A program made the position numbers and the translations under genes. The notes below the pieces were generated by a model. That model searched no databases and was not told the DNA's origin. It saw only the letters and a program-made list of their open reading frames with translations. A stretch of DNA of 64,000 bases from an uncultured virus (IMG/VR IMGVR_UViG_3300046537_000053) (lineage: Duplodnaviria > Heunggongvirae > Uroviricota > Caudoviricetes > Schitoviridae): IMG/VR virus record IMGVR_UViG_3300046537_000053. One strand, 5' to 3'. Within the stretch, counting starts at the first letter, position 1, and every line of letters starts with the position of its first letter. Below, in pieces: positions 18,667 to 39,768 of the stretch.

Positions 18667-19194
18667 ATGCCACCCCGGGTCATCAAGTCCAACTATCCCT
18701 CCCGGTTTGCCGTCATCGAAACCATCATCGCCAAGCTGTTCAACCCCGACGACCGGCGCCTCAAGCACTGGGTCGACAAGCTCGATGGCCAGAACCGCGA
18801 GCTCCGCCAGGACAACACCCTGCTCGGCTTCCTTTACCTCGGCCGCTATTTCCGGCCGAGCCATGTCGAGGGCAAGGATCCCATGGGCGTCAAGCCCTGT
18901 CATCCTGACCTCTACTCCAAGATCGAGGCCTACCTCAGCGACGAAAAGCTGGTCGACAGCGACAAGCAGTTCCTGAGGCAGGGACTCTACACGCTCCTGG
19001 ATCCATGCCAGTCGCTGCAGGATGTCCGCGATACCCTGCCCGAATGCCTGGTGCCGTTCCTACCCGAGATCAAGGACATCGATCGCGACCGTGAACCCGG
19101 CTTCACCCTCGAGGGCAATCCGCGGGGTGCTCGACAATTCGAGAAGCTCCGCGATAAGCTCGAGGCCTATGCCGTCTCTGGGATCATCTTCTGA
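18667..19194 (+). CDS. N4 gp38-like hypothetical protein
   Basis: AAGGAG RBS; lies between helicase and polymerase; QDVRDTLPECL motif. Confidence 0.75.
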   Translation: MPPRVIKSNYPSRFAVIETIIAKLFNPDDRRLKHWVDKLDGQNRELRQDNTLLGFLYLGRYFRPSHVEGKDPMGVKPCHPDLYSKIEAYLSDEKLVDSDKQFLRQGLYTLLDPCQSLQDVRDTLPECLVPFLPEIKDIDRDREPGFTLEGNPRGARQFEKLRDKLEAYAVSGIIF

Positions 19195-21851
19195 TGCGCT
19201 TTGCCTACTTCCATTCGCCACCGGAACGCTCAAGCTACCCGGTCTGTGTCCTGGCTCCAGCTATCATGAAGAGCCAGATCGAACACACCTACCTCCACCC
19301 GTTCGGGATCAACGTCGACGACGTGCTGATCCTCGACCTGCACCGCAGCGAGGGCACCAAGAAGACGCCGGCCGCGGAGATGAAGGCCTACATCGAGGAG
19401 GAGCTGGCTCCAGTCCTCAACGACATGAAAGTCCAGTATCTGCTAGTGGCGGATGCTGAGTATTTTAAGACGCTGACCAAAGCGGCCAAAGTCGAAGTCC
19501 ACCTCGGCTATGTGATGGATAGTGTCTGGGGGCCCTGGAAAGTTGTCTATGTGCCCCACTGGGGGCAGGTCTTCTACGATCCGGACAAAGTTAAAGCCAA
19601 AATTGCCCTGGCTGTTCGCGCAATGTGCGAGCACCGCCTCGGGAACTATCAGGCACCGGGCACTTCCATCATCAAATTTGCCGCCTATCCCCTGACTGTG
19701 CAGGAAATTGAGGACTGGCTCGAACGCCTCATTGCCGACGATCGTCCACTCACCTGTGACATCGAAGCATTCAGTCTCAAGCATCACACCGCGGGGATCG
19801 GAACAATCACGTTCTGCTGGTCCAAGCATGAAGGTATAGCTTTCCCCGTAGATCTGCACCCAGAAGCCACTAGGATTAGAGCTTTATTGAAAAGCTTTTT
19901 CCTCCGCTTCACCCAAAAACTAATCTATCATTCCATCAGCTACGACGTCTATGTCCTGATTTATCAGCTGTTTATGGAAGACATCCTCGATACTGAGGGT
20001 CTGCTTGACGGGCTCGAGGTGATGCTCCGCAACTGGGACTGCACCAAGCTGATCACCTACCTGGCCACCAATTCGTGCGCCGGCAATGTGCTCAAGCTCA
20101 AGGTGCTGGCCCAGGAATTCGCTGGCAACTGGGCGGTCGACAGCGAGGATCTCAAGGATATTACCAAGGTCCCGCTGCCCGAGCTGCTCGAATATAATCT
20201 GGTCGACGGCCTATCCACCTGGTTCGTCAAGGAAAAGTACGAGCCAGTGATGGATACGGACCAGCAGCGGGCCCTGTATGAGGGCCTGTTCAAGGACGCC
20301 ACCCGGGACATCATCCAGATGCAGCTTACCGGCCTGCCGCTCTACATGCCGCAGGTCCTGGTGGTCGAGCAGATCCTCGAGGAAATCCAGCAGGATGCCC
20401 TCTACCGGATGATGAACAACCCGGTCTGCCGGCAGTACATCTACGAGATGCAGGTCGAGCATGTCGCCAAGCGCAATGCTGCCCTCAAGAAGAAGCAGAT
20501 CAGCATGGCCGACCAGGAGACCCTGGACGTCACGCTCAACCCGGCTTCACCCGACCAGCTGCAGGGATTGCTCTATGGTTTGATGGGCTTGCCGGTCATT
20601 GCTCGCACCGACACCAAGCAACCGTCCACCGGTGGCAAGGTGCTGAAAGCTCTCAAGAACCACACCAAGGATCCTGACCAGATCGCCCTGCTCGAGTCAT
20701 TGATCGACTGGAAGGCCGTGGTCAAAATGCTGACCGACTTCATCCCGTCGTTCAAGAACGCGGCCCTGGGCCCGGACGGCTGGCATTACCTGTTCGGCAA
20801 CTTCAATCTGGGCGGGACCATTTCCGGCCGGCTCAGCTCCTCTGGACCCAACCTGCAGAACCTGCCGTCGAACGTCTACATGATGATCTCGGCCGCTCTG
20901 CTGGCCAAGTTTCCGCTTCTGGCTCAATACACCAAGAAGGGTGAGCTCAGCCTCGGCAAGCTGATCAAGAGCTGCTTCCGGGCGCCACCCGGCTGGCTAT
21001 TCTGCGGACTCGACTTCGCCAGCCTCGAGGACAAGATCTCGGCCCTGACCACCCGCGATCCCAACAAGCTCAAGGTCTACACCGATGGCTATGACGGCCA
21101 CTGCCTGAGGGCCTATGCCTATTGGCCCCAGCTGATGCCGGACATCGACCCGACATCGGTCGTGTCGATCAACTCGATCGCCAACAAGTACAAGGCGCTC
21201 CGCCAGAAGTCGAAGGTCCCGACCTTCGCCCTAACCTATGACGGCACGTTCAACACGCTGATGACCGGATCCGGCTTGCCGGAGGACGAGGCCAAGCGGA
21301 TCTTCGCCGCCTACCACGAGCTCTACGGCGTCAGCGACGACTGGGTTGCAGCTAAGCTCAACCAGGCGTCGATCGATGGTTTCGTGACAGTGGCCTTCGG
21401 TCTCCGGCTCAGGACACCGCTCCTCAAGCAGACCATCCGCAAGACTCGTAGAACACCCTACGAAGCGGAGGCCGAAGGCCGGTCTGCTGGTAACGCTTTG
21501 GGACAGAGTTGGTGCCTGCTAAATTCACGGGCCTGGACCGAATTCATGCCCAAGGTCCGGGCCAGCAAGTACCGACTCGACATCCGACCTTGTGCCCAGA
21601 TCCACGACGCCGGCTATGCCCTGATCCGGGATGACCTGTCTCCTCTGGTTTACACCAATGAGCATCTGGTCAACGCCACCTTCTGGCAGCAGGATCCGGC
21701 GATCGCCCATCCCGAGGTCCGACTCGGCGGAGAGCTCAGCATCTTCTGGCCGACCTGGGCCGAGGAGTGCATGTTGCCCAATGGAGCCAGGGAAGCCGGG
21801 ATCCTCTCGGCGATTGCTGATCACGAGAGGGCTTTACAGCCCAATCCCTGA
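19194..21851 (+). CDS. Family A DNA polymerase with 3'-5' exonuclease
   Basis: ExoI DIEAFS, YNLVD, GTISGRLSS...NLQN, motif A DFASLE, motif B RQKSKVPTFALTY, motif C QIHDA. Confidence 0.96.
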   Translation: MRFAYFHSPPERSSYPVCVLAPAIMKSQIEHTYLHPFGINVDDVLILDLHRSEGTKKTPAAEMKAYIEEELAPVLNDMKVQYLLVADAEYFKTLTKAAKVEVHLGYVMDSVWGPWKVVYVPHWGQVFYDPDKVKAKIALAVRAMCEHRLGNYQAPGTSIIKFAAYPLTVQEIEDWLERLIADDRPLTCDIEAFSLKHHTAGIGTITFCWSKHEGIAFPVDLHPEATRIRALLKSFFLRFTQKLIYHSISYDVYVLIYQLFMEDILDTEGLLDGLEVMLRNWDCTKLITYLATNSCAGNVLKLKVLAQEFAGNWAVDSEDLKDITKVPLPELLEYNLVDGLSTWFVKEKYEPVMDTDQQRALYEGLFKDATRDIIQMQLTGLPLYMPQVLVVEQILEEIQQDALYRMMNNPVCRQYIYEMQVEHVAKRNAALKKKQISMADQETLDVTLNPASPDQLQGLLYGLMGLPVIARTDTKQPSTGGKVLKALKNHTKDPDQIALLESLIDWKAVVKMLTDFIPSFKNAALGPDGWHYLFGNFNLGGTISGRLSSSGPNLQNLPSNVYMMISAALLAKFPLLAQYTKKGELSLGKLIKSCFRAPPGWLFCGLDFASLEDKISALTTRDPNKLKVYTDGYDGHCLRAYAYWPQLMPDIDPTSVVSINSIANKYKALRQKSKVPTFALTYDGTFNTLMTGSGLPEDEAKRIFAAYHELYGVSDDWVAAKLNQASIDGFVTVAFGLRLRTPLLKQTIRKTRRTPYEAEAEGRSAGNALGQSWCLLNSRAWTEFMPKVRASKYRLDIRPCAQIHDAGYALIRDDLSPLVYTNEHLVNATFWQQDPAIAHPEVRLGGELSIFWPTWAEECMLPNGAREAGILSAIADHERALQPNP

Positions 21852-21928
21852 TCGCTACCCCTATTTATGCTGAGCTTTTGCTCGGTTCGCAGTTCCGTGG
21901 GGGAACTGCCCATCACATCGGAGTAATC

Positions 21929-22357
21929 ATGGGAAACCGCTCGCGACCCAACGACCGTCGTCATCATTGGCTCGGCAGCTTCAAGCTGATGTTCCTTCTT
22001 CCCGGCCAGGAAGAAGTTAGCCATTTCGAACACAATGTCACCCTGACGAACAAGGCCAAATTCGTCACCGCCAACATGATCGGCGAGGCCCAGCAGGCCG
22101 TCCAGATGCACCTCCTTCAGGAGGTCAAGGACCCGACCATCCAAATGATCAGCTGCCATATTCAGGGCGTGCATTATTTGGGTGAAATGTCTGCGGAAGA
22201 GTTCTATACCCCTCCTCCCGTTTCAGAAGAAGCGGCACCGGAGGGTGGGACTTCCGAAGCAGCTGAACCTCTGACACCGGTCGGTGTCAAAGACCCCTTC
22301 GCAACGAAGGCAGCACCTGTCCCAAGCTCCGACTCAGCGATCCCTGCAGAGGGATAA
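21929..22357 (+). CDS. Hypothetical protein (N4 gp41-like position)
   Basis: GGAG RBS; YLGEMSAEEF motif; acidic Pro-rich tail. Confidence 0.75.
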   Translation: MGNRSRPNDRRHHWLGSFKLMFLLPGQEEVSHFEHNVTLTNKAKFVTANMIGEAQQAVQMHLLQEVKDPTIQMISCHIQGVHYLGEMSAEEFYTPPPVSEEAAPEGGTSEAAEPLTPVGVKDPFATKAAPVPSSDSAIPAEG

Positions 22358-22395
22358 GTGCCGGTATTCTCCGGCTTTGTTGAAGGAGATGTGAC

Positions 22396-22452
22396 TTGTA
22401 TCGCAACTCTGTAGTGGAAGAGCAGCTCGAACTGCCTTTTCCACGCTCGTAA
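22396..22452 (+). CDS. 18-aa micropeptide MYRNSVVEEQLELPFPRS with clamp-binding-like motif
   Basis: AAGGAG at 22383-22388, 7 nt before TTG; upstream in-frame TGA; stop TAA at 22450-22452. Confidence 0.5.
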   Translation: MYRNSVVEEQLELPFPRS

Positions 22453-22495
22453 CGGCAACTCTGATAGCACACTAGCCTAAGTGTTGCCAAATGAT

Positions 22496-22527
22496 TGGGG
22501 CCCGGACTTGTTCCGGGCTCCAGTTTT
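22496..22527 (+). terminator. Intrinsic terminator
   Basis: TGGGGCCCGGA/TCCGGGCTCCA then GTTTT. Confidence 0.65.
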
Positions 22528-22552
22528 CCCTCTCGCGCCCGAGGAAAAACCC

Positions 22553-23548
22553 ATGAAAGTCGGCAATCAGCTCAACATCAATCTGCCCATGGCAGTTTGG
22601 TTGCTCCATGACGAATATGACTACGTCAGCAAGCCCAACTATTACAGCGTCACCACCCTGATGAAGCCGCTCCGGCAGATCCTGCTGCCCGGACGGATCC
22701 CTCCCAGCGAGGTCCAGGCCGACGTTTCCGAATTCATCGCTCGCAAGTATGGCCATGCCATCCACGACTCGATCGAACGAGCCTGGGAAAACGGCAACCA
22801 TCGCCGGCCGCTGGCCCTGATGGGCTATCCCGAGGAGATCATTGATCGCATCGCGGTCAACCCAACCGACGACGAGCGCCGGGCATCCAACGAAATGATC
22901 CCGGTCTACCTCGAGCAGCGGATGTTCCGCGAGCTCACCATCGACGGCGTCACCTACACCATCGGCGGCAAATTCGACATGGTGGCGGACGGGATCGTCC
23001 AGGATGCCAAGTCGACCAGCGTCTGGGCGTTCATCAAGAACGACAAGGACGATACCTACAGCGACCAGATGAGCAAGTATCGCTGGCTCGATGCGGGGCA
23101 GCCGCTCCGCAAGATCGACCAGGATTACGGGATCATCAACTTCGTCTTCACCGACTGGCAGAAGGCCATGATCCGCCAGGCCGGCTACCCGCAAAAGCGG
23201 ATCGAGGCGAAGAACATCCCGTTGAAATCATTGGCCCAAACCGAGGCCGAGATCATCGAGAAGCTGCGGCTGATCGCCCGCTACAAGGACGTCCCGGAAA
23301 GGGATCTCCCGGAATGCACCGACAAGGAGTTGTGGCGGTCCGAACCCGTTTACAAATACTACGGGGACCCGGCCAAGATGAACGATCCGGCCGCCAAGCC
23401 CTCGAAGAATTTCGACAACCTCAGCGATGCCAACAAGCACCTGGCCGAAAAGGGCAAGGGAGCCATCAAGACAGTCCTCGGCGAACCCAAGGCCTGCGGC
23501 TTCTGTGCCGGGTTCGATGCCTGCACCCAGAAGGATAAATATCTATGA
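22553..23548 (+). CDS. PD-(D/E)xK (Cas4/RecB-like) exonuclease (N4 gp42-like)
   Basis: GHAIH, LEQR, GGKFDMV, DAKSTS; C-terminal CGFC...C cluster; GAGGA RBS before ATG 22553. Confidence 0.85.
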   Translation: MKVGNQLNINLPMAVWLLHDEYDYVSKPNYYSVTTLMKPLRQILLPGRIPPSEVQADVSEFIARKYGHAIHDSIERAWENGNHRRPLALMGYPEEIIDRIAVNPTDDERRASNEMIPVYLEQRMFRELTIDGVTYTIGGKFDMVADGIVQDAKSTSVWAFIKNDKDDTYSDQMSKYRWLDAGQPLRKIDQDYGIINFVFTDWQKAMIRQAGYPQKRIEAKNIPLKSLAQTEAEIIEKLRLIARYKDVPERDLPECTDKELWRSEPVYKYYGDPAKMNDPAAKPSKNFDNLSDANKHLAEKGKGAIKTVLGEPKACGFCAGFDACTQKDKYL

Positions 23549-29052: not shown

Positions 29053-32000
29053 TCAGCTGAACAGGTTGACCCACGGATTGAGCAGGTGGGCCCGGAAGCC
29101 CTGGTCCAGTCCGATCGACCAGCCCTCCTTGCCCTCGGCAATGACCGACACGAAGTTGTCGGTGACGGGCGTACCCACATCCAGCCCGAGGAACGCCGGG
29201 GTTGGAGCCAGGTGAGCCAGGAAGAGATGGAGCGGATTGTTCCGCAACACCGACAGGGCGATCTTGGCCGAGCGAAGCTTGAAGTTCCAGAACCACAAGA
29301 GCCCGTTATTCTCCAGGCCCGAGCGCCAGCGACCCGGCTGACGGTCGTAGTTGATGAATTCCTCGGTCACCTTGCCCATCGCCTCGTCATGGGTCTTGCC
29401 CTTGCGGCCGGTGAGCTCGTCATAGAGCACGGCTTTAGCTAGGAAGTCACCGTATTCGACCGCCCGCTGCAGCCCCTTGAACAGGGCCGTGTCGCGAGAG
29501 ACCATGCCGTACTTGGCCGCGGTCTTTAGACCATCAGGCAACTTGTCGGTCAGCTTCTCGATATAGGCGCCAAGGCGTCCTTCGGTCAGCTCGATCTCCT
29601 CGTTGGAGATGCCGGCGTCCGAGATGGAAGCAAACTCACCCGCATTGATCAGCGGCCAGATCGACAGGCGACGATTGGCATCGAGGATCGAGCGGATCTC
29701 GCGCTTGAGATCGTGCTGCTTCTGCAGATCCTGGGTCCCCTCGGCGACCCGCAGCTCACCCTCGAGCTCCATGCGGCGGGCCCGGTTCTTGATGAACTGG
29801 TCGACTTCCGCCGCCTTGGCCGGGAACCCCTTGAGAATATGCTTCAACGGCACGCCGCGGCTGGCCAGGTGGTAGACGTTCGACATCATGTTGGCGATCG
29901 GCACCACCACCGACTTGACGACGATCGTCACCTTGGCGTCCGAGACGAACGTCTGGAAGGTCTGCTCCGCCTTGACCAGGCGCTTGAAGGCATCCTGGCC
30001 GAACACCGCCATGGCGACGTCCTGGGCCGTCTTCTGGACTTCAGGTGACCAGCGGGAAATTCCCGTCCACAGGTCACTCACCGAAGGTGAACGGTAACCC
30101 AGTGCATCATTGACCTGATCCCGCCGTACCCAGAACTGGTTCTGGCCGAACTCGGCTTCGATCAATTCCCGGGCATCGGGCGTCAACAAGCCCACCGCAT
30201 CGGCGATGACCTTGTCCTGCTGGGCCTCGCGGCTGAACAGGTTGATATATTCCGACCGCTGACTCCGCTTGTCCCGGCGCCATTGATCACCCAGCCGTTC
30301 GATCAGCATGTCGTTGAAGTCGCCGGCCATCCGCTCTTCGACCTGGCGACCGTGCCAGATCCCGATGACCTCGTGCATCTGGGTATTGTAGTTGAGCTTC
30401 TCGACCACCAGCGGATCCATGCTCCGCTCATAGGCGATCACCTCACCGGCGCCATTGCGGACCGGCAGCAGCGGCTCACCGCCCTGCATCCGCAGCAGGC
30501 GGGTATCGACGACGCTGTCTTCGACCACACCCGCGGTCGCCACACCATTGCTGAGACCGGTTCTAGGATCAACGCCATAGGCCGTTGTCCGGACATTCTG
30601 CATGATCCCCTGCATGAACATCGCACGGCCGCTGACCGGGGCAAAGTAATAGCTCTTGGCTCGGGCCCGACGTTCGGCGTTGGAGCCCTGGTAGGCACCA
30701 ACCCGGATATAGCCGCGCTTTTTCAGATCGGTGAACTGACGATCGTCGGCCACGATCAGCGAGGTACCGGCCGCCTGCTCGGTCGGGACATGGCCCTTGA
30801 AGTGGTTCATCTCGGCCAATTCCGAGCTGGCCACCTTGGCCATTTCGTCCTTACGCTGACCAACCAGTCGGCTCATGACGTGGATCATCCCGTCACGCTC
30901 GGTGCTGATCAGATCCTTGAGGGTCTCGGCGACAGCCGGGTCCATCCGCTGGACAGCATAGAGCGACACCAGCTGATCGATCATGTCGATCGTCGCCTGG
31001 TTGGGCAGCTGGAACGCATTCCGCTGGGCCACGCTCAGCACCCCATGGAGCTCGGCTACCGCTTTGGCATTCCGCAGCAGATTGACGCCCGGATGGCCGG
31101 TCGTCATGTGATCAGCCAGCTGCTCGGCCTTACGCTGCCATTTGGCAAAGTTGGCCGGGTCGATCGTCTGCAGCTGGCGCTCGAGCTGGTTGATCTGACG
31201 CTGGGTGTTGGCCGGCCGGCTCAGCAGGTCTAGCAGCTGGGGCACAGTCATCGCACCCTGAACCAGGGAAGCAAGATCCGTCTTGGCCAGGCCCTTGAAC
31301 ATCGCCGTCCACTCATGCTCCTCGAGCGCCCGGCTGAACTGCTTGGCGATCTGCTTGGGCAGATACTCGCGGAACTGCTGGCGGGTCTGCTGGACGAACG
31401 TCCGCACCGCCTTGATCATGTCGTAGACCATCTTGTTGGACTCGGTCCGACCGGCGATTTCGGTCCACAGCTCCCGCAGCGGGGTCCAGATCTCCCGCTG
31501 GTTGAGAGCCGAGGTCACGCCATTGGCGACGATCTCCGACTTTTCCTCGTTGACGATCGCCATGGTGGTCTTGCCGAGCTTGGCCAGCAGCGACAGCAAC
31601 CGGTTGCGGCTGGCCTGTTCGACTCCGTCCAGCTTCTCGTACAGCGCCTTGCTGACGTTCTGAACGGAATTGACGAAGGTATCGTTGAAAGTGTCGGAGG
31701 TCTCTCCAACTTTGGTGACGAACTGATCAACATAGTTGGCGTTGTTGACGCTGTCCTCGACCAGCTTGTCCTGCAGCGAGTCGATCGCAGCCTGGACCGA
31801 GGCCTCGTGCTGGTGCTCGCCGGAGAAGATCTTGCCCAGCCGGTCCATGCTCTCGATCCCGAAGTTCTCGAGCGTCGCGTCCCAGGTGCCATCCAGGCTC
31901 TTGGCTTCCTTGCTGACCGGCAGCTTGGCGAGCACCGAGCGGAAATGGTCATCGACCATCGCCAGACCGATGAATGCCGGTAGCAGTGACGACCGGCCGG

Positions 32001-35000
32001 CATTGTCGAGCCGGGTGCCGAACAGGCCACGAAGCGCCTTCATCTGCTGGTGGGCAGCGTACCTCTCGGCATCGTTGGCGTTATCCGGATCCGCCATTAG
32101 ATGATCCTCGGTGAGGACCTTCATGACGTCGGTGTAGTGCTTCTGCATCCGGACCATCGAGTTCGGATTGAGCTTGGCATCGGTCATCATCGCCAGGACA
32201 ATGTTGCGGAAGGTCGACGACGCCAGCTGATCCATCGGGAATTCAGACCGCATGATCTCGGTCACGTCCAACGCATTGGCGAGATCCCGGGTGATGTTGG
32301 CTTTCTGGCGGGCAGCCTCGATCGGCGAAGCTGCAGCCGTGACCAGGGCCCCGATCTTCTGACCGTACTGGGCCCGCAATTCCCTGAGCCGCTCGGTCCG
32401 GCCGAGCGTCGAATGCTCGAGCGTGGCCTCCGAGCTCTGGATCTTCTGCTCGAGCGTCGGGGCCGAGTTGATCAGCACCTCGGTGTTGAACCGCAGGTTG
32501 GAAAACAGATCATTGCCCACGGTCGACGGGATCGCCCGGCCGAACACCAGCTTCTTGATCGCCTCAAGCACCGACTTGGCAATCTCCGCCAGGGTGCCGA
32601 CGATCGAGATCTTCTGGCCCTCGGCGATGAGGTCCCGGTTGGCCAGGTTCCATGCCATAAATTCATTAAGGGCAGCGGCCTTGTTGCCCGAGGCGAGATG
32701 CCCCTGGATCGCGCGAAGCGCGTCCTGGTAGGCAATCTGCAGCCGGAGAGGCGACATGGCCCGCTCGCCCGCTTCCAGAGCATGACCGATCCAGGTCGAC
32801 ATCAGCGACTCGATGCGAGCCACCGCCTCCTTCTGGACCTCGCTCAGCGAGCCGGGGTCGTTGTAATAGGCATAGACCTGATCGAACGAAGCCGCATGAA
32901 GCAGTTCGTGGACCAGCGTCTCCGACGACGGGTTGATCAGGTAGACGTGGCGTTCCGCGGTCAGCGTGAAACCATGGGAGACCTTGCCATTATTGCCCAG
33001 CGGCGTCAGTCCCGCGGCAACCCGCTTGGCATTGATCTGCTCAAGGGTGCCGACCGTTAGCTGATATCCACCATCGACCAGCTGCTTCAACGCGATGTTG
33101 AGCAGCTTCTTGTGCTCGAGCGGGATATTGAGCTGGCGACTAAGGCTACGAACTTCAGCCATGTTGGCAGTGCGGGTGCCAAAAGTCTCATCCAGTTCAC
33201 CCAGAGTGGACAATTCCTTGGCAATAGTTTCAGACGGTACCGCCTGCTTTTCGCTCCGCAGCTTGGCCAGCTCCTTGTCGAGCTCGGCATTGAGCGTGGC
33301 AGCGATGGCCGCGGGATCCCGATCGCTGATCTTGATCGAACCCTCGTTAACGTGCGGTGCCTCGGCCGACGCCATGTGGTCGACACTGAGCTGGGTATTG
33401 GCCAGCACGTTCTTCCGTGCCTGCATAACCTGTGCCAGATCTTCCAGCTGCTGGGCCCGGAACTTGATCGCCTCGATGATCCCGTCCGCGTCGCCGGCAC
33501 CGTCTTCGAACAGCACCCGGCCGAGATCATTGATGAGCTCTTCCGACATGTTCGAGAAATCGGCATTGGCTGCGAATTCGCTGAAGGCCTGGGCCACCGC
33601 GGTCAGCGGGTTGGCCGACCAGCCATTAAACACCGCCTTGTTCATCAGGGCCGAGCCCTTGGCGGCATCGGCGATCGACAGGTTGTAACCGTCGAATACC
33701 GGCAGGCCGTCAGGACTGTTGGGATCCGTGCCGTAATTCTGGATCATCTGACCGTCACCGGTGCCGATGACGATCGTTGGAATACCCTTGACCCCGGCAT
33801 TGACCGGGCCCTCAACCTGGGCTGACGAGCGGAAATTCTCCGCGAAGTCACGGCCGAATTCCGGCTGGCGGCCACCCTTGGCCTTGCCTCGGGCATCCCG
33901 CAGATCGACTTTGTCGGAGCCAGAGATGAAAAAGCTCTGGGTCCCGGTGTGGACGAACGGCGCCATGTGCTTCAGCCGGTCGAACGCTGTACGGATTTCT
34001 GCACGGGTCAGCAGGTCACCGCGGACATTCCGTTCATCCATCGACGCACTGAGGTCGTCCTGGAAAGCGTGCTGCAGGAAGATCGACTGGATCTGGATCG
34101 CATCCCGCAGGGCTTCGACCGAAGGACGGGTCTCGCCGATCACCTTGTTCATCGCCTGGACCATCGGCCCGACGAACAGATGCTCCACCGCGGACCGGAG
34201 GTTCTTCTCCTGGCTCCGGGTGAAGGTGTAATTCTTGAACGACTTGTCCCGCGGCTGCTCGGCCGGCTCGCGGATGGCGAAGAATTTCGACTTCTTGGTG
34301 CTCCACACAACCTTGTGGTTGGTGAGGCCCGAGATTTCCTGACCGATGCTGGCCACCGAACCGTGCTGCTCGGGGTCGCTCATGCGGGCGTAGATCTCTT
34401 CGAAGATCTCGTTGACGATCTTGCCGGCGATGCCCTTGGCACCGGAACCATAGACAGTGATGGTGACCGGGTTCTTGGTCACGCCACGATCGATGATCAG
34501 GTCGGTTCCCTCGAACCGCATGTCCTTCATCATCTCGGCCATGACGTTCCGCAGGGCCTGGTTGATCAGGCTCATCTCCGGATCGCCGGCGAGGTTGGCA
34601 ACCATGCCATCGAGCAGGGTGGTCAGCTCATTCTTGACGGCCGTGTAGAGATCCACCGGATCCGCGGCGAACTGGTCGGCGAAGGTTCCCCGATCCTCGC
34701 CGATCATCAGGCCGCCCTTGGCCACCGTCTGGATCCAGCCGGGCGTGAATTCCCCATGCTGACCGACACCCATGTGGACCATGGCGTTGATCGGGCCATC
34801 GGTGACACCGTCAGCCTCGAGGTACAGCGCCGTGTCGAACCCGCTGTTGTCGTCGTGCTGGGTGAACCGGACGTAATCCTGCAGGGCGTGCAAAGCACCC
34901 GGGGTAAGGTCCTTGCCCAGCTTATCCTTCAGCAGCTGCAGATCTTCAGCGGTGAATTTTTTCTTCTCGACAATGTCGAGCACCCCATCGAGCTGGGCCA

Positions 35001-38000
35001 TCTTGTCGGTGACCAGCTGCTCGATGTTGGCCAGACCGGTCTGGTGGATCTTGATCCCCAGATGCTGGCCGACCGCGGCGAAGAACATCTTGCGATGCTC
35101 GGGGTCAGCGAGATCGATCGTCGAATGCGTCGGCAGGATGATCTCACGCAGGATCTTGGAGGCCTGCGGATTGTTGCGGCCGAGCATGTGCAGACGACCG
35201 ACTGCAGACACACCGTAATCGTAGAAAACTTCAACTTGGTCAGGACTCAGTCCCTGCTCAGTTGCAGTCTGTCGGATGTGACCTAGCAATTCCTTGAAGG
35301 TCGCATAGGCCGACCGGGCCGTGATGATCTTGCCATCCAGCGACTTGGCATGGTTGATGTTGACCGCGCCCTCTTCGAAGGCCGGGGCCCCGAACAGCTC
35401 GGCGAACTGGTCTTCGGTCAGGCCCTCATAGAGCTCGACCATCCGCATGTTGGCCCGGAACGGCACCTTCTGGTAGCGTTCGATCAGGTCCCGCTGCTGC
35501 TTGGTGGTCTTCACCAGGCTCGAACCCATTTGATATTTCGCGACAGAAGTTGGCGCGGTTCCGACAAACAGCGTTTCTTCTGGCTCGATCGTGACCAGCT
35601 TGTCGATCAGGTCCGACTTGGTCTCCTTGAGCCGGGTCGCCAGCTTGCCGGCGTCGGTATCCTTGACCGGCAGCAACCGCTGCACAGTGATCTCGCCAAT
35701 CGTGATCGGCTTGTCCTGCTCGAGCAGGCCGACCGACACCAGTGCATTGAGCAGCTCACCGGCGAATGCCTCGGTGATGCCTTCGCTATTGCCGATAAAG
35801 GCGCCAGTCTTTTCCTGGACGCCCCAGAAACGGCGGATCAACGACGCCAGCTGGCGCTTCGAGTTGACGTTGGGGTAGCCATAGTTGAAGTAAGCCGGAG
35901 CCTCGGCCGGCACTTCGGCAATGTCGACGCCCAATCGCTTGGCGATGTCTTCGGCATCCTGGTTGCGAGCCGCACTGTTGGCGATCAGCAGCCAATGCAG
36001 GGCCGCCAGGATCCCGCCCTGCAGCAGCTCCATGTCGTAGCCGGTGACCTTGCCATCCTCGGTCGAGACCAGGTTCAAGGCCTTGCCGTTGACCCACTTG
36101 TTGGCAGCTTTGCCCGCGGCAATGGCATCACCATTCTTGACCAGGAACTGGCCCAGTTGGTTGGTCATGGCGGTGGCGATCGGCCGAGCCAGGCCGAGGT
36201 AGCTGGAATAATCCTTGAGGACCTGCTCGCCGATCGGCTTCTGGAAGAACCGGTTGTCCTCGCCGACGAAGGCCTTGAGGGCCGTGCTGGATTTGAGGGC
36301 CCCGAGCAGCGTCTGGAACATCTCACGTCCCAGTCCCAACAATCGACTGATTGGCTGGGTCGGGATTTTGAAGCTTTCCTTGAACGCATTGGTGCCACCG
36401 ATCTCGAGGAGATCGGCGAACGGCTCTACAGGACCAGCACTATCATCGACAGCGGGTTCAGTTGAGTTGTCCTCAACATTTTCCACAGCTCGAACTTCGG
36501 ATGAGTCCGGCTTTTCTGCTTTGTTTTCAACAACTCCCGACTTCTCTTCAACTTTAGAGGAGTTGGGTTCGTTGGTCTTTTCCACCGCGTCGACGGTGTC
36601 CTCTGCCACGGTGTCGCCACTCGCTCCGCTCGTGGCTTCGTGGCCGGACTCCGTCTCGCGGACGAGTCGGTTTCCTTGCCGGATAAGGGTGTAAGATTTT
36701 GCACCATCGCCCTCGTTTACATTGCTACCACTGTGACGATACACCTCGAACGAGGTGACGTTGGGATGCTTGGCCATCAGCAGCTGAGCCAGTTTCAGCA
36801 CAGCAGCCGGGCCAATCGAGACCTTGTTCGAACGCTCACCGATGGTGAAGCCTTCGATCTTGTCGCCGTTCAGGATGTATTGCCCGAACACCACCTTGCC
36901 TTCCTTGGTGCGGTAGGCGAATTCGTGGCGACCCTTGTCGAGCGTGTCGGTGGCATCCGGGTACAGCACCATCGTCTTCAGCTCGCCCTTGGCGGCCGAC
37001 TTCTCGAGCCTGTCCTTGACTTCTTTCAGACGCTCGCCGCGGCTTTGCGGCTTGGCGTCCGGTTCCGGCGCCGGCTCGCTGCTTTCCTGAGCGAGGGGCT
37101 GCTCTTTCTGCTGGCGGGCGGCTTCCTCGCGGGCGGCGTTACGCGCCTGCTTGTAATTGAACTTGACCTGCTCGGCCCGGTCCTGGAGGGACTCGTCGAG
37201 CTGGGTCAGAGTGACCGGCTTGATGCCCAACTCAGGGTGCAGTTCAGCCAAGTGGTTGGCGAAGTCGACCGTCGCACGGGCATCCTCGAATACCCGCTGG
37301 GCAAAGCGAACTGACTTCGGAGCCATGGGATTAACCCACATTCCCTGCTTCTGTTCGAAGAATTTCCGGGTCTGTTGGGCTAGAGCCTTGTACGGTGTGG
37401 TGTTGGTTTCGCTACCTTCACCACCCGCCAGGTTTTCATTGATCGCAGCGATCTTGTTGTTCTGACTCTGGGCAAACTTCATTAGGTCCGCCAGCTGCTT
37501 GGCTGCCTTGGGCAGGTCACCCTGACGGATCGAGGACGAGATCTTCTGCTGGTGCGAGCTCAGCGACTCGAATTCACCTTCGCCATTGTCGCCGTGACGG
37601 ATGTCATAGGCGATCGCATGGCTCTGGGTCAGCTTGAGCTCGTTCGACTTGGCCACGTCTGCAGCCTGGATCCGGTTGAGGCCGGCTATGGCCTCAAGGC
37701 TCTGGCGTTCTGCCGGCGTCAGCGGCAGGTCACCCTTACTGGCCATCTCGAGCACCGTGTCGACGACATCCGCCTTGACGCTGCCCGGGTTCTGGATCGC
37801 CGACTTGGCGGCAATGCTGGCCCAACGGGCATCATTCTTGACCCGGGCCGCAGTGATCGCGGATGCAATCTTGTTGCCGGTCTCGATCGCCTTGTGGACT
37901 TCGGGGCTTGCACTGAAATTCTGGACGATCTCGGCCAGCTTGTTGAGCTGCTCTACCGCGGGATCGTTCTGGTCCAGCGGTTCGAACGCATCACCCAGCT

Positions 38001-39726
38001 TCTCGACCATGTCCCCGGCATGATCCTTGGTGAACTGGGCCAGCCACAGGCTGGCTTCGGCCCGGTCTTCCGGGGCCAAATTCTTGTCCTGGACGGCGGC
38101 CGTCATCTTCTGCAGGGCGTCAAACCGGTCGGTGGAACCAGACAGGATTGAAGCAACTGCGGGCCCATCCTTGTGGGCTTCAGCTTCCTTGGCTCCGTCG
38201 AACGACACCGCACTGATCAGGTCGTCGATCGCCTTTTCGCCCGCGGTGAACTGCTCTTCCGAACCGGCCTTTTCCTGGAGACGCTCCCGCAGGCCATCGA
38301 GCACACCCGGCTCGGCCACTGCCTGAGCTGCAGCCTCGGCGGTGGTGCGGGTCTCGGCATTGTGAACCGACAGCGGCGACTGGGCATCAATCCCGGCCTC
38401 AACTGCAGCTGCACGGTTGGAGGCGAAGTCCTTGCCAGCGTCGACAATCTTGCCAACTCCAGCAGCAACAGCCTTGCCGGCCGTGATCGGAGCACCTGGG
38501 ATCTGCACCGCTCCCGCGGTACCCATACCATAGAGAGCACCCTCGGCCGCCTGGTCACCGACATCAGTCGTCAGCGAGCGATCCTGATCGGCATTGGCCT
38601 GGATCCCGACGTTGGTCGCGATCTGACCGCCACCCGACTGGAGGCCTTCCTCCACGGTTTCCCGGAGGACGTTGCCGGCCGCAGTCTTAAGACCGGGCAC
38701 ATGGAACGGATCGGCTTCAAACTTGGACACCAGCTTACCGGTGATGACACCGACCGGGGCCTGGATGGCAGCGGCCGTCAGACCGGCATGGTTGGCGATT
38801 TCAGCCTTGGCATCACTCTCACTCCAGCCCTGTTCGATCAGCGACTGATAATCTGGCGATCCCTTGAGCAACTGGTCGTGGGACATGCCCATGACTTCGT
38901 TGACGGTCTGGGTATAGGCGCCGCCACCCTCGAGGGCACCAATCGCCAGCGGCATTGCTCCACCCCGGGTGGCAGCATTGATTGCGAACGCAGCCTTCGA
39001 AGGACCGGCAGCTCCCACCGCGAGACGGGCTGCAGCCAGGCCACCGACTGCCTTGATACCCTTGCCGATGACACCGCCGAGGAGCATCGAACCGACGCCC
39101 TGAGCCGTACCCGACTCGAGGTTGACGGCGTCCATATTGTTGACACCGTCGATGAAGTCCCGGCCAACCTGGCGAAGACCGGCTACAAACGAGCTCGAGC
39201 CGTTGGCGATCTCTTCGTCGCGGAGCCGAGCATTCTCCTCACTGGAGACGCTGACCCGCTCACCATGGGCCCGTCGACGGGCGTTGAGCGCGTTGGACTG
39301 CAGACCTGAACCAAAGTCATTAACGTCCTGGGCCCAGCCGCTTACGGCCGTGCCAGCATCACGATCAACCAGACCAGCTCCAACAGCGCCAATGCCAAGA
39401 GCACCTTGAAAGACACCGTTGACGACGTCGACTGCACTGTCGCCGATTGCCCGTCCGTTGGATCGGGTCGCAGAGGTGTCTTCGACATATTGACCGTAAC
39501 CACCTACTTCTTGAGCCAAGGCATCACGGTCGCCAGCGTTCGGGTTGAGAATATCCTGAGCTGTCAGCTTGGAGGTCAACGCGATATCGGGATCGTCCCG
39601 GGCAGCGTCACGGTACCCACCGTTGAAATTTGCCTGCTTGGTTGCCGCCGCTTCAGCGACATCGATCTGCTTCGACTGTGCGGCTGTGCCAAGATATTCA
39701 CCAAACAGGCGAGACACGTCAGACAT
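29053..39726 (-). CDS. Virion-encapsidated RNA polymerase (N4 gp50-like vRNAP)
   Basis: About 3,560 aa; T7-like motifs SAVGR, EADGVTDG, RGVTKNPVTITVYGSG, VFDG; no Cys seen on reading; ATG 39726 follows GTGGGGA. Confidence 0.97.
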   Translation of the reverse strand: MSDVSRLFGEYLGTAAQSKQIDVAEAAATKQANFNGGYRDAARDDPDIALTSKLTAQDILNPNAGDRDALAQEVGGYGQYVEDTSATRSNGRAIGDSAVDVVNGVFQGALGIGAVGAGLVDRDAGTAVSGWAQDVNDFGSGLQSNALNARRRAHGERVSVSSEENARLRDEEIANGSSSFVAGLRQVGRDFIDGVNNMDAVNLESGTAQGVGSMLLGGVIGKGIKAVGGLAAARLAVGAAGPSKAAFAINAATRGGAMPLAIGALEGGGAYTQTVNEVMGMSHDQLLKGSPDYQSLIEQGWSESDAKAEIANHAGLTAAAIQAPVGVITGKLVSKFEADPFHVPGLKTAAGNVLRETVEEGLQSGGGQIATNVGIQANADQDRSLTTDVGDQAAEGALYGMGTAGAVQIPGAPITAGKAVAAGVGKIVDAGKDFASNRAAAVEAGIDAQSPLSVHNAETRTTAEAAAQAVAEPGVLDGLRERLQEKAGSEEQFTAGEKAIDDLISAVSFDGAKEAEAHKDGPAVASILSGSTDRFDALQKMTAAVQDKNLAPEDRAEASLWLAQFTKDHAGDMVEKLGDAFEPLDQNDPAVEQLNKLAEIVQNFSASPEVHKAIETGNKIASAITAARVKNDARWASIAAKSAIQNPGSVKADVVDTVLEMASKGDLPLTPAERQSLEAIAGLNRIQAADVAKSNELKLTQSHAIAYDIRHGDNGEGEFESLSSHQQKISSSIRQGDLPKAAKQLADLMKFAQSQNNKIAAINENLAGGEGSETNTTPYKALAQQTRKFFEQKQGMWVNPMAPKSVRFAQRVFEDARATVDFANHLAELHPELGIKPVTLTQLDESLQDRAEQVKFNYKQARNAAREEAARQQKEQPLAQESSEPAPEPDAKPQSRGERLKEVKDRLEKSAAKGELKTMVLYPDATDTLDKGRHEFAYRTKEGKVVFGQYILNGDKIEGFTIGERSNKVSIGPAAVLKLAQLLMAKHPNVTSFEVYRHSGSNVNEGDGAKSYTLIRQGNRLVRETESGHEATSGASGDTVAEDTVDAVEKTNEPNSSKVEEKSGVVENKAEKPDSSEVRAVENVEDNSTEPAVDDSAGPVEPFADLLEIGGTNAFKESFKIPTQPISRLLGLGREMFQTLLGALKSSTALKAFVGEDNRFFQKPIGEQVLKDYSSYLGLARPIATAMTNQLGQFLVKNGDAIAAGKAANKWVNGKALNLVSTEDGKVTGYDMELLQGGILAALHWLLIANSAARNQDAEDIAKRLGVDIAEVPAEAPAYFNYGYPNVNSKRQLASLIRRFWGVQEKTGAFIGNSEGITEAFAGELLNALVSVGLLEQDKPITIGEITVQRLLPVKDTDAGKLATRLKETKSDLIDKLVTIEPEETLFVGTAPTSVAKYQMGSSLVKTTKQQRDLIERYQKVPFRANMRMVELYEGLTEDQFAELFGAPAFEEGAVNINHAKSLDGKIITARSAYATFKELLGHIRQTATEQGLSPDQVEVFYDYGVSAVGRLHMLGRNNPQASKILREIILPTHSTIDLADPEHRKMFFAAVGQHLGIKIHQTGLANIEQLVTDKMAQLDGVLDIVEKKKFTAEDLQLLKDKLGKDLTPGALHALQDYVRFTQHDDNSGFDTALYLEADGVTDGPINAMVHMGVGQHGEFTPGWIQTVAKGGLMIGEDRGTFADQFAADPVDLYTAVKNELTTLLDGMVANLAGDPEMSLINQALRNVMAEMMKDMRFEGTDLIIDRGVTKNPVTITVYGSGAKGIAGKIVNEIFEEIYARMSDPEQHGSVASIGQEISGLTNHKVVWSTKKSKFFAIREPAEQPRDKSFKNYTFTRSQEKNLRSAVEHLFVGPMVQAMNKVIGETRPSVEALRDAIQIQSIFLQHAFQDDLSASMDERNVRGDLLTRAEIRTAFDRLKHMAPFVHTGTQSFFISGSDKVDLRDARGKAKGGRQPEFGRDFAENFRSSAQVEGPVNAGVKGIPTIVIGTGDGQMIQNYGTDPNSPDGLPVFDGYNLSIADAAKGSALMNKAVFNGWSANPLTAVAQAFSEFAANADFSNMSEELINDLGRVLFEDGAGDADGIIEAIKFRAQQLEDLAQVMQARKNVLANTQLSVDHMASAEAPHVNEGSIKISDRDPAAIAATLNAELDKELAKLRSEKQAVPSETIAKELSTLGELDETFGTRTANMAEVRSLSRQLNIPLEHKKLLNIALKQLVDGGYQLTVGTLEQINAKRVAAGLTPLGNNGKVSHGFTLTAERHVYLINPSSETLVHELLHAASFDQVYAYYNDPGSLSEVQKEAVARIESLMSTWIGHALEAGERAMSPLRLQIAYQDALRAIQGHLASGNKAAALNEFMAWNLANRDLIAEGQKISIVGTLAEIAKSVLEAIKKLVFGRAIPSTVGNDLFSNLRFNTEVLINSAPTLEQKIQSSEATLEHSTLGRTERLRELRAQYGQKIGALVTAAASPIEAARQKANITRDLANALDVTEIMRSEFPMDQLASSTFRNIVLAMMTDAKLNPNSMVRMQKHYTDVMKVLTEDHLMADPDNANDAERYAAHQQMKALRGLFGTRLDNAGRSSLLPAFIGLAMVDDHFRSVLAKLPVSKEAKSLDGTWDATLENFGIESMDRLGKIFSGEHQHEASVQAAIDSLQDKLVEDSVNNANYVDQFVTKVGETSDTFNDTFVNSVQNVSKALYEKLDGVEQASRNRLLSLLAKLGKTTMAIVNEEKSEIVANGVTSALNQREIWTPLRELWTEIAGRTESNKMVYDMIKAVRTFVQQTRQQFREYLPKQIAKQFSRALEEHEWTAMFKGLAKTDLASLVQGAMTVPQLLDLLSRPANTQRQINQLERQLQTIDPANFAKWQRKAEQLADHMTTGHPGVNLLRNAKAVAELHGVLSVAQRNAFQLPNQATIDMIDQLVSLYAVQRMDPAVAETLKDLISTERDGMIHVMSRLVGQRKDEMAKVASSELAEMNHFKGHVPTEQAAGTSLIVADDRQFTDLKKRGYIRVGAYQGSNAERRARAKSYYFAPVSGRAMFMQGIMQNVRTTAYGVDPRTGLSNGVATAGVVEDSVVDTRLLRMQGGEPLLPVRNGAGEVIAYERSMDPLVVEKLNYNTQMHEVIGIWHGRQVEERMAGDFNDMLIERLGDQWRRDKRSQRSEYINLFSREAQQDKVIADAVGLLTPDARELIEAEFGQNQFWVRRDQVNDALGYRSPSVSDLWTGISRWSPEVQKTAQDVAMAVFGQDAFKRLVKAEQTFQTFVSDAKVTIVVKSVVVPIANMMSNVYHLASRGVPLKHILKGFPAKAAEVDQFIKNRARRMELEGELRVAEGTQDLQKQHDLKREIRSILDANRRLSIWPLINAGEFASISDAGISNEEIELTEGRLGAYIEKLTDKLPDGLKTAAKYGMVSRDTALFKGLQRAVEYGDFLAKAVLYDELTGRKGKTHDEAMGKVTEEFINYDRQPGRWRSGLENNGLLWFWNFKLRSAKIALSVLRNNPLHLFLAHLAPTPAFLGLDVGTPVTDNFVSVIAEGKEGWSIGLDQGFRAHLLNPWVNLFS

Positions 39727-39768
39727 TAATGAAATCCCCACTACCCGCTGTTATCTCTAGCACAGTAG

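Follow-up and report, generated by a model that had tools for sequence, protein, structure and literature searches.

The window analysed here is a 64,000-nucleotide (nt) stretch of an uncultured virus (IMG/VR record IMGVR_UViG_3300046537_000053) and represents a large part of an N4-like podovirus (Schitoviridae) genome. Its plus-strand replication module encodes a Dda-like helicase, a DNA polymerase (19194-21851), a phrog_5974-like gene, an exonuclease, a primase, a Sak4-like protein and a single-stranded-DNA-binding protein (SSB). Between the phrog_5974-like gene and the exonuclease gene lies a gap of 195 nt, running from the upstream stop (22357) to the exonuclease ATG (22553). This gap, already placed there by an earlier note made from the letters of the window, contains the subject of the present work, a micro-open reading frame (micro-ORF) of 18 codons whose product carries a motif resembling those that bind the bacterial sliding clamp, DnaN. 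The features that define it are as follows.

22383..22388, plus strand: Shine-Dalgarno (SD) sequence AAGGAG, 7 nt 5' of the start codon; duplex with the anti-SD sequence, -8.8 kcal/mol
22396..22452, plus strand: micro-ORF with TTG start, 18 codons, (M)YRNSVVEEQLELPFPRS, and TAA stop; homologous micro-ORFs occupy the equivalent place in 10 further N4-like lineages
22423..22440, plus strand: core codons Q10-L-E-L-P-F15, a clamp-binding-type hexapeptide that follows E8 and E9 (10-sequence alignment)

The SD sequence, the 7-nt spacer (ATGTGAC, 22389-22395), the TTG start and the 18-residue frame, which reads MYRNSVVEEQLELPFPRS up to its stop, agree letter for letter with what the earlier note had described. 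The duplex energy of the SD sequence falls within the lowest 1.1% of start-codon-like triplets in the loci. Comparison with relatives indicates that the micro-ORF is a real, conserved gene under protein-level selection, with a conserved ribosome-binding site (RBS).

Conservation across N4-like lineages

The exonuclease protein served as the syntenic anchor for finding relatives, giving 79 viral loci and 80 metagenome loci. A motif-bearing ORF lies directly 5' of the exonuclease gene in 11 N4-like lineages (the window, L009, L010, L035, L042, L092, L138, L131, L097, L148 and L162), with products of 17-56 residues. The exonucleases of the relatives that carry it are 47-61% identical to that of the window. 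Six-frame translation of 80 loci (489,573 nt) gave six occurrences of QLxLPF, all on the plus strand and 102-130 nt 5' of the exonuclease start; three of these are copies of the window, and the others belong to L009, L035 and L042. L010 has QLELPI at -82 relative to the exonuclease start. A degenerate-pattern scan of the viral collection for [DE][DE]Q[LF]E[LF]PF identified five further N4-like loci (L092, L138, L131, L097 and L148), in which the ORF is directly 5' of the exonuclease and primase genes. The metagenome set contributed one new motif-bearing lineage, L162, with QLELPL, and no closer relative emerged from a metagenome scan, in which exonuclease identity did not exceed 61%.

Examples of the homologous products are MRSQSLIASEEEQLELPF, MSIKLQLDQTEEQLELPFS, MQSLKSDEEQLTLPFV and MRHSAHSTWITSEDDQLELPFPPQPSRQ. 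Q, L, L and P never vary in an alignment of 10 sequences (A1), and E and F are kept in at least 90% of them (I replaces F in L010); the N- and C-terminal parts differ in both length and sequence. Two acidic residues precede Q in eight of the ten homologues, with SR at this place in L009 and PN in L010.

Selection on the protein is seen most directly in the codons. At the four invariant residues, 125 of 180 pairwise comparisons differ, all of them synonymously and none non-synonymously, with CAG/CAA, CTC/CTG/TTG, CTG/CTA/CTT/TTG and all four CCN codons in use. The remaining two frames contain stops in several lineages. Among the 10 ORFs tested, the start codon is ATG, or TTG in the window, and the anti-SD duplex energy averages -6.8 kcal/mol, against -2.6 kcal/mol for 1,865 other start-like triplets; resampling gave a value as low in 0 of 20,000 trials. 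The weakest SD sequence is that of L042 (-2.8 kcal/mol), whose ATG overlaps the upstream stop as TAATG. The earlier note had proposed a search for motif conservation accompanied by synonymous change, which was found in these 125 codon differences, and had counted loss of the motif and RBS against its reading; both are conserved among N4-like relatives. From the start codons, SD sequences and codon pattern, we infer that the micro-ORF is translated in vivo.

Two other readings of the coding potential were rejected. Minus-strand ORFs of 88 and 67 amino acids cross the gap, but the variation sits on the third positions of the plus-strand frame. A programmed frameshift joining the upstream gene to the motif was likewise discarded: the open stretch of the motif frame in five lineages is only 21-28 codons long and begins after an in-frame stop, and in the window the upstream gene stops 38 nt before the micro-ORF, which also counts against such a fusion.

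Closer to the window, a soil contig (run X8) is about 9% diverged over 22239-22923, with 59 substitutions and 4 gaps. Differences occur up to 22378 and from 22464 onwards, and none falls within 22379-22463, which holds the SD sequence and the ORF, as read from the alignment rows shown (69 are not). Both flanking hairpins and the exonuclease gene differ in this contig, while the SD sequence and micro-ORF do not in the rows shown. Such identity within a 9%-diverged contig shows strong constraint. Even synonymous sites are unchanged, so constraint on the peptide and constraint on the nucleotides are indistinguishable there. The nearest record, G001, has no difference from the window over the micro-ORF region. 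The sequencing runs listed as containing the region are DNA runs labelled rhizosphere or soil metagenome, with no RNA run among them, and relatives of the window at the DNA level are N4-like phages of Rhizobium, Achromobacter, Erwinia, Pseudomonas and Stenotrophomonas. A tblastn search with the 28- and 24-residue homologues against 50,697 phage records (E up to 10) gave no match, with queries too short for this to mean absence.

On a FastTree phylogeny of 97 distinct exonucleases, all 11 carriers fall within one half of 62 rows, and six changes are needed to explain their distribution. When carriers were shuffled on the tree, the mean was 10.6 changes, and none of 500 shuffles was as low as six. 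This pattern fits an old presence of the micro-ORF followed by what would be repeated loss. Within two complete genomes from the clade, the micro-ORF is the only credible ORF to show the QLxLPF codon pattern; the two remaining matches fall in open frames of 114 and 43 codons.

The genes on either side of the gap in the window are the following.

21878..22357, plus strand: upstream gene, 159 amino acids, phrog_5974-like (E 4.8e-13), of unknown function; the last long gene 5' of the gap
22553..23548, plus strand: exonuclease gene, 331 amino acids, phrog_2139 (E 5.2e-119)

A Pfam search with the 159-residue upstream product returned no family, and a scan of 21500-23500 for sigma-70-like promoters found 0 sites. 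Elsewhere in the window, a minus-strand ORF of 3,562 codons (29053-39741) is, by its size, a candidate for the virion RNA polymerase.

The usual order in the clade is polymerase, phrog_5974-like gene, a gene of about 100 amino acids, the micro-ORF overlapping the 3' end of that gene, hairpin, exonuclease and primase. The family of about 100 amino acids (FKEIWR...NGKPGH...EKIVHYAGRI) is found at L035:2583-2891, L092:1170-1496 and L131:966-1274, with further copies at L138:1554-1853(-), L097:1526-1843(-) and L148:14-295, and matched no family in a Pfam search. A different, longer ORF at its place in L009 has a weak DUF6378 match that is below the cut-off (E 2e-4). Since DUF6378 proteins of other phages bear the motif at their N-terminus, the micropeptide and this neighbour may be functionally linked. 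In the window and L042, the neighbour is missing and the micro-ORF is retained, so the peptide does not depend on that gene being adjacent. L183, a sister lineage without the micro-ORF, encodes about 150-300 nt 5' of its exonuclease start a 100-residue protein that ends in EDDQFEQFKRAISEFP. This main-frame ending resembles the motif in degenerate form and may be either what remains of it or a different arrangement.

The motif and its candidate target

Natural clamp-binding motifs are described in passages of PMC11139829 as Q-phi-x-[LM][FL] or Q-phi-x-[LM]-x-[FL], with the highest affinities reported for QLxLF and QLxLxF forms and with mostly acidic flanks. The same passages report low micromolar clamp binding by the phage-display peptide LQLELDF and inhibition of growth when the 9-mer MGPRQLDLF is expressed in E. 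coli. The core of the micropeptide, QLELPF preceded by EE, matches the hexameric consensus and the acidic-flank trend, which bears out the clamp-binding-like motif that had been claimed for it; QLELPL of L162 fits the same hexameric form.

Known clamp clients carry similar sequences. In Y-family polymerases from published genomes, inspected by eye and with three loci from genomes flagged as unpublished excluded, Q[LM]x[LFI] directly follows the little-finger domain in 28 of 32 tails. One exact example is a Flexivirga Y-family paralogue with DEQLELPF at precisely the clamp-motif position after this domain, and one pentapeptide example is a Pseudomonas Pol IV that ends in EQLELFDDT; these examples are L366 (G002:C34) and L365 (G003:C126). 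Among bacterial genome contigs, EEQLEFPF was also observed in a DDE transposase (L263:68-1618:+), and EEQLELPF in a UvrD-type helicase with a PD-(D/E)XK nuclease domain (L245:28-2403:+). According to PMC4549789, transposases of many insertion sequence (IS) families interact with the clamp.

On this basis, the micropeptide is best read as a free-standing plug of the host DnaN cleft, to which we assign a probability of roughly 0.55. The 18-residue product would be an acidic lead-in and the hexapeptide QLELPF with little else. The hexapeptide would enter the hydrophobic protein-binding cleft of host DnaN, as the motifs of Pol II, Pol IV and Hda do, and would thereby displace or keep out the host clamp clients, namely Pol III alpha, the clamp loader, Hda, repair polymerases, ligase and Pol I. 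Host replication and repair would then fall while the phage's own, presumably clamp-independent replisome continued to run; the N4 replisome is reportedly clamp-independent. Both binding of the peptide to DnaN and an inhibitory outcome are suggested by the motif and its conservation. The earlier note had proposed a peptide that blocks or redirects the sliding clamp. Of this, a conserved gene with a consensus motif stands, and blocking is favoured over redirection, by inference only: one motif is conserved with no second part, which points to occupancy of the site by a competitive plug and hardly to a bridge between two partners.

The motif is also found on other phage proteins. The pattern [DE][DE]Q[LF]E[LF]PF occurs in 72 viral loci, compared with 8 for a reversed-peptide control. 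These 72 loci reduce to 59 distinct ORFs, 44 of them at least 60 amino acids long, and in 40 of the 59 the motif lies no more than 30 residues from an end. F is followed by D or E in 26 ORFs, by P in 8 and by a stop in 5, and an (x)PP continuation occurs in 15. After near-identical ones were dropped, 32 of the 44 longer ORFs were compared with Pfam and PHROGs. Matches included five DUF6378 proteins, one DUF3310 'nucleotide kinase'-type protein, one dNMP kinase, one Erf annealing protein, three C5 DNA methyltransferases, an HTH_17 protein, an AAA ATPase and an MptE-like protein; 14 of the 32 had no Pfam family. Carriers are found among viral loci L081-L152 (for example L083:1219-1686:-, L104:1237-1593:-, L110:1486-2130:+, L082:1153-1818:- and L145:637-1764:+). 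In the DUF6378 and DUF3310 nucleotide-kinase-like proteins, the motif is N-terminal to the domain, and DUF6378 proteins of other phages bear it as an N-terminal fusion. Judged by its carriers, the motif behaves like a transferable tag for enzymes that act on DNA and nucleotides, as would be expected of a motif for docking on a replication hub.

A more ambitious form of this proposal can be entertained only tentatively. [DE][DE]QLELPF, often with [DE]PP after it, would be a widespread phage clamp-docking tag that an N4-like branch has released as a free product of 17-56 residues, making it the smallest natural ribosomal inhibitor of the sliding clamp. Unrelated tagged phage enzymes, such as nucleotide kinases, DNA methyltransferases and annealing proteins, would work at host replication forks by means of the tag. 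Once host clamps had been emptied by the free product, host replication would stop, and clamp-bound host ligase and Pol I would be freed for the phage replisome; N4 is said to need both of these host enzymes.

Several observations weigh against the proposed occupation of the DnaN cleft. Single clamp-binding peptides are only micromolar binders, and a plug would therefore need high expression. In the six-frame translation of the 64-kilobase (kb) window, QL.L.[FL] occurs nine times, making the case weak on the window by itself; it is the comparison with relatives that lifts the motif above chance. A loose clamp-motif pattern is not enriched 5' of exonuclease genes (0.84 versus 0.90 per kb). The matches listed from a scan of bacterial genomes for the pattern are mostly noise, many of them in short or unassignable frames, and include carriers unrelated to the clamp (UreE, GldD, BipA and phosphoglucomutase), so the hexapeptide alone is not diagnostic. 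The distribution of the ORF is patchy: it is present in only 11 of 97 distinct exonuclease loci, a share that is itself inflated since five of the 11 carriers were found through the motif, and it is missing from sister lineages such as L015 and L183. N4 (L072) and the loci that match isolate phage genomes have no such ORF 5' of the exonuclease gene. Finally, the identity of the ORF in the soil contig could reflect nucleotide-level constraint or recent exchange.

Alternative readings and the folding of the gap

The strongest competitor keeps a motif-driven peptide and changes its partner: another conserved replication hub, of host or phage, would read the acidic stretch together with L-x-L-P-F. 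Proline is fixed at position 5, beyond what the clamp consensus asks for, and neither the acidic residue after F (26 of the 59 phage ORFs) nor the (x)PP continuation (15 of 59) is required by that consensus. Nucleotide kinases, not known to be clamp clients, make up many of the carriers. However, the invariant Q1, L2 and L4 and the hydrophobic position 6 are exactly the residues that define a clamp motif, and an identical hexapeptide occupies the clamp-motif site of a Y-family polymerase. The clamp motif of Hda, QLSLPL, also has P at position 5, and we know of no other bacterial hub with this consensus. A different hub is thus considered unlikely.

Other alternatives arise from the folding of the gap. 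A 201-nt segment folds at -78 kcal/mol with five stems, far better than shuffled sequences (z = -4.15). The elements of this fold are listed below.

22360..22381, plus strand: small GC hairpin (22360-22375; 5 GC pairs, 6-nt loop) and TTTGTT, terminator-like, after the upstream gene; found by terminator scan
22414..22444, plus strand: hairpin formed by the coding stretch, part of a 73-nt fold (z = -2.3); judged incidental to codon choice
22447..22494, plus strand: third stem-loop of the gap (GGCAAC...GTTGCC), with differences at 22464-22479 in the related soil contig
22496..22529, plus strand: strong GC hairpin (22496-22522) and AGTTTTCC, terminator-like, 3' of the micro-ORF; from the fold
22523..22550, plus strand: stem that pairs the T-tract with the exonuclease RBS (GAGGAAAAA); in the minimum-free-energy and centroid structures of the window only

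The earlier note had placed a terminator after the ORF. The strong GC hairpin and AGTTTTCC are present there, but a consensus terminator scan did not flag them; the hairpin at 22496-22522 was passed over because it is followed by only four T, and the hairpin 5' of the ORF was flagged instead. L162 has a textbook stem and T-run after its ORF, and a hairpin with TTT(T)CC behind it recurs in homologous loci. Pairing of the T-run with the exonuclease RBS could couple termination or processing to translation of the exonuclease.

This arrangement raises the prospect of a cis-acting leader peptide, whose translation or stalling would govern read-through of the downstream hairpin into the exonuclease and primase genes. 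The ORF sits just 5' of the strong terminator-like hairpin, the exonuclease RBS is paired in the fold of the window, the ORF is nucleotide-identical in the diverged soil contig, and the stand-alone homologues inspected, as well as L162, have a self-complementary GC-rich stretch at the equivalent place (identified by eye in the sequence). Nevertheless, the distance from motif to stop varies (0, 1, 3, 6, 7, 15 or about 36 codons), and no conserved alternative pairing was found. L009 and L010 have neither gap nor hairpin: in both, the ORF runs in another frame across the tail of the upstream gene, and that of L009 also reaches over the exonuclease start. Moreover, at least 44 longer phage ORFs contain the eight-residue motif, and a sequence that arrests ribosomes would do harm there, which disfavours such a role. 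A leader peptide is consequently given a low probability, somewhat below that of a different protein partner.

It is more improbable still that the peptide mimics the acidic C-terminal tail of SSB and competes for the enzymes that dock on it. The tail has the consensus D-D-D-[IL]-P-F, which acidic residues followed by L-P-F resemble, and the products of L092 and L138 end exactly in ...EEQLELPF, as do five of the 59 phage ORFs. Recognition of the SSB tail needs the free carboxylate of its last Phe, however, whereas nine of the 11 lineages run on past F by 1 to about 40 residues, the window itself continuing with PRS. The acidic residues are also less conserved (SR in L009, PN in L010) than Q and the first L, which are invariant although a tail mimic would not need them.

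Lastly, the conserved element might be an RNA or DNA structure, the coding-stretch hairpin, with the ORF incidental, as the earlier note had allowed; this is very improbable and largely refuted. The hairpin does fold as that note described (22414-22444), it is stable in the window, and five of 10 homologues can form a GAAG.GCAG/CUGC.CUUC stem. Across 10 homologues, however, 68.8% of cells pair, a value equalled by 125 of 500 column shuffles; the 10-sequence alignment contains 0 compensatory changes in hairpin pairs, variation on third codon positions breaks the stem, and the z-scores for folding of eight homologues lie between -0.8 and -3.1. An Rfam search of 21500-23500 (E up to 10) found no family for the gap, its sole match being a chance-level snoRNA elsewhere (E = 7). 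An RNA role is thus unsupported. The hairpin arises because GAA-GAG-CAG...CTG-CCY-TTC is self-complementary, and it is treated as a probable by-product of codon choice.

Comparison with known systems

If the clamp cleft is bound, the micropeptide would be a minimal ligand, made by nature and tried by evolution, for a validated antibacterial target. In length it is close to the synthetic peptides that currently serve as leads, and its gene is of a type that annotation pipelines miss. It would also illustrate that a short linear motif can be a phage gene in its own right. Possibly the larger lesson lies in the occurrence of the motif on many unrelated phage DNA and nucleotide enzymes, a sign that phages may commonly dock proteins on the host clamp and that this strategy has received too little notice.

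Targeting of the sliding clamp by phage proteins and toxins is already known, and what would be new here is the reduction to a bare motif. In the literature searched, which lay outside subscription journals, neither a free-standing phage gene for a clamp-motif peptide nor the literal strings of the QLxLPF type (QLELPF, EQLELPF, QLTLPF, QLSLPF and QLDLPF) were found.

N4 belongs to the same family as the window, and PMC3594737 tabulates how its gp8 shuts off host replication via HolA, the delta subunit of the clamp loader, and how DnaN is the target of the staphylococcal phage proteins Twort gp168 and G1 gp240. These are cases in which lytic phages with their own replication genes disable host clamp function (PMC3594737). 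N4 gp8, however, is a 71-residue early protein that acts against the loader and not the clamp. A tblastn search with N4 gp1-gp16 found no gp8 relative in the window, which starts at the end of the gp16 homologue and leaves the early region outside, and the micropeptide is too short for a comparison of this sort to be telling. If the present reading is true, N4-type phages would have clamp plugging as a third way to disable the host replisome, alongside the action of gp8 on the clamp loader.

Toxins offer a second comparison. SocB of Caulobacter arrests replication by binding the hydrophobic cleft of DnaN through a usual clamp-binding motif (PMC9690074), and RipA of Streptococcus pneumoniae arrests replication via the same cleft, to which its suppressor mutations map (PMC12795458). 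Both are chromosomal toxins of toxin-antitoxin systems with a cognate antitoxin, whereas the phage ORF has no antitoxin-like neighbour. MuC/Mor of phage Mu carries the clamp motifs QHDLF and QPDLF, and its overexpression is lethal through interaction with the clamp (PMC12867686). MuC thus also uses near-consensus motifs on the host clamp, but it is a transcription activator that exploits the clamp, while the micropeptide has no other domain.

The bacterial DnaN clients (Pol II, Pol III alpha, Pol IV, Pol V, Hda and MutS) have a like core with acidic flanks in a short, presumably disordered segment. In these proteins the motif tethers an enzyme to the clamp; the micropeptide is essentially the motif alone, with nothing to tether. 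It is in this respect closer to the synthetic or selected cleft peptides (QLDLF-type, LQLELDF and MGPRQLDLF; passages of PMC11139829), which are likewise short linear occupiers of the cleft, and LQLELDF differs from QLELPF of the window at one motif position. Those peptides are laboratory constructs, whereas the micropeptide appears to be the product of a natural, conserved phage gene with its own RBS.

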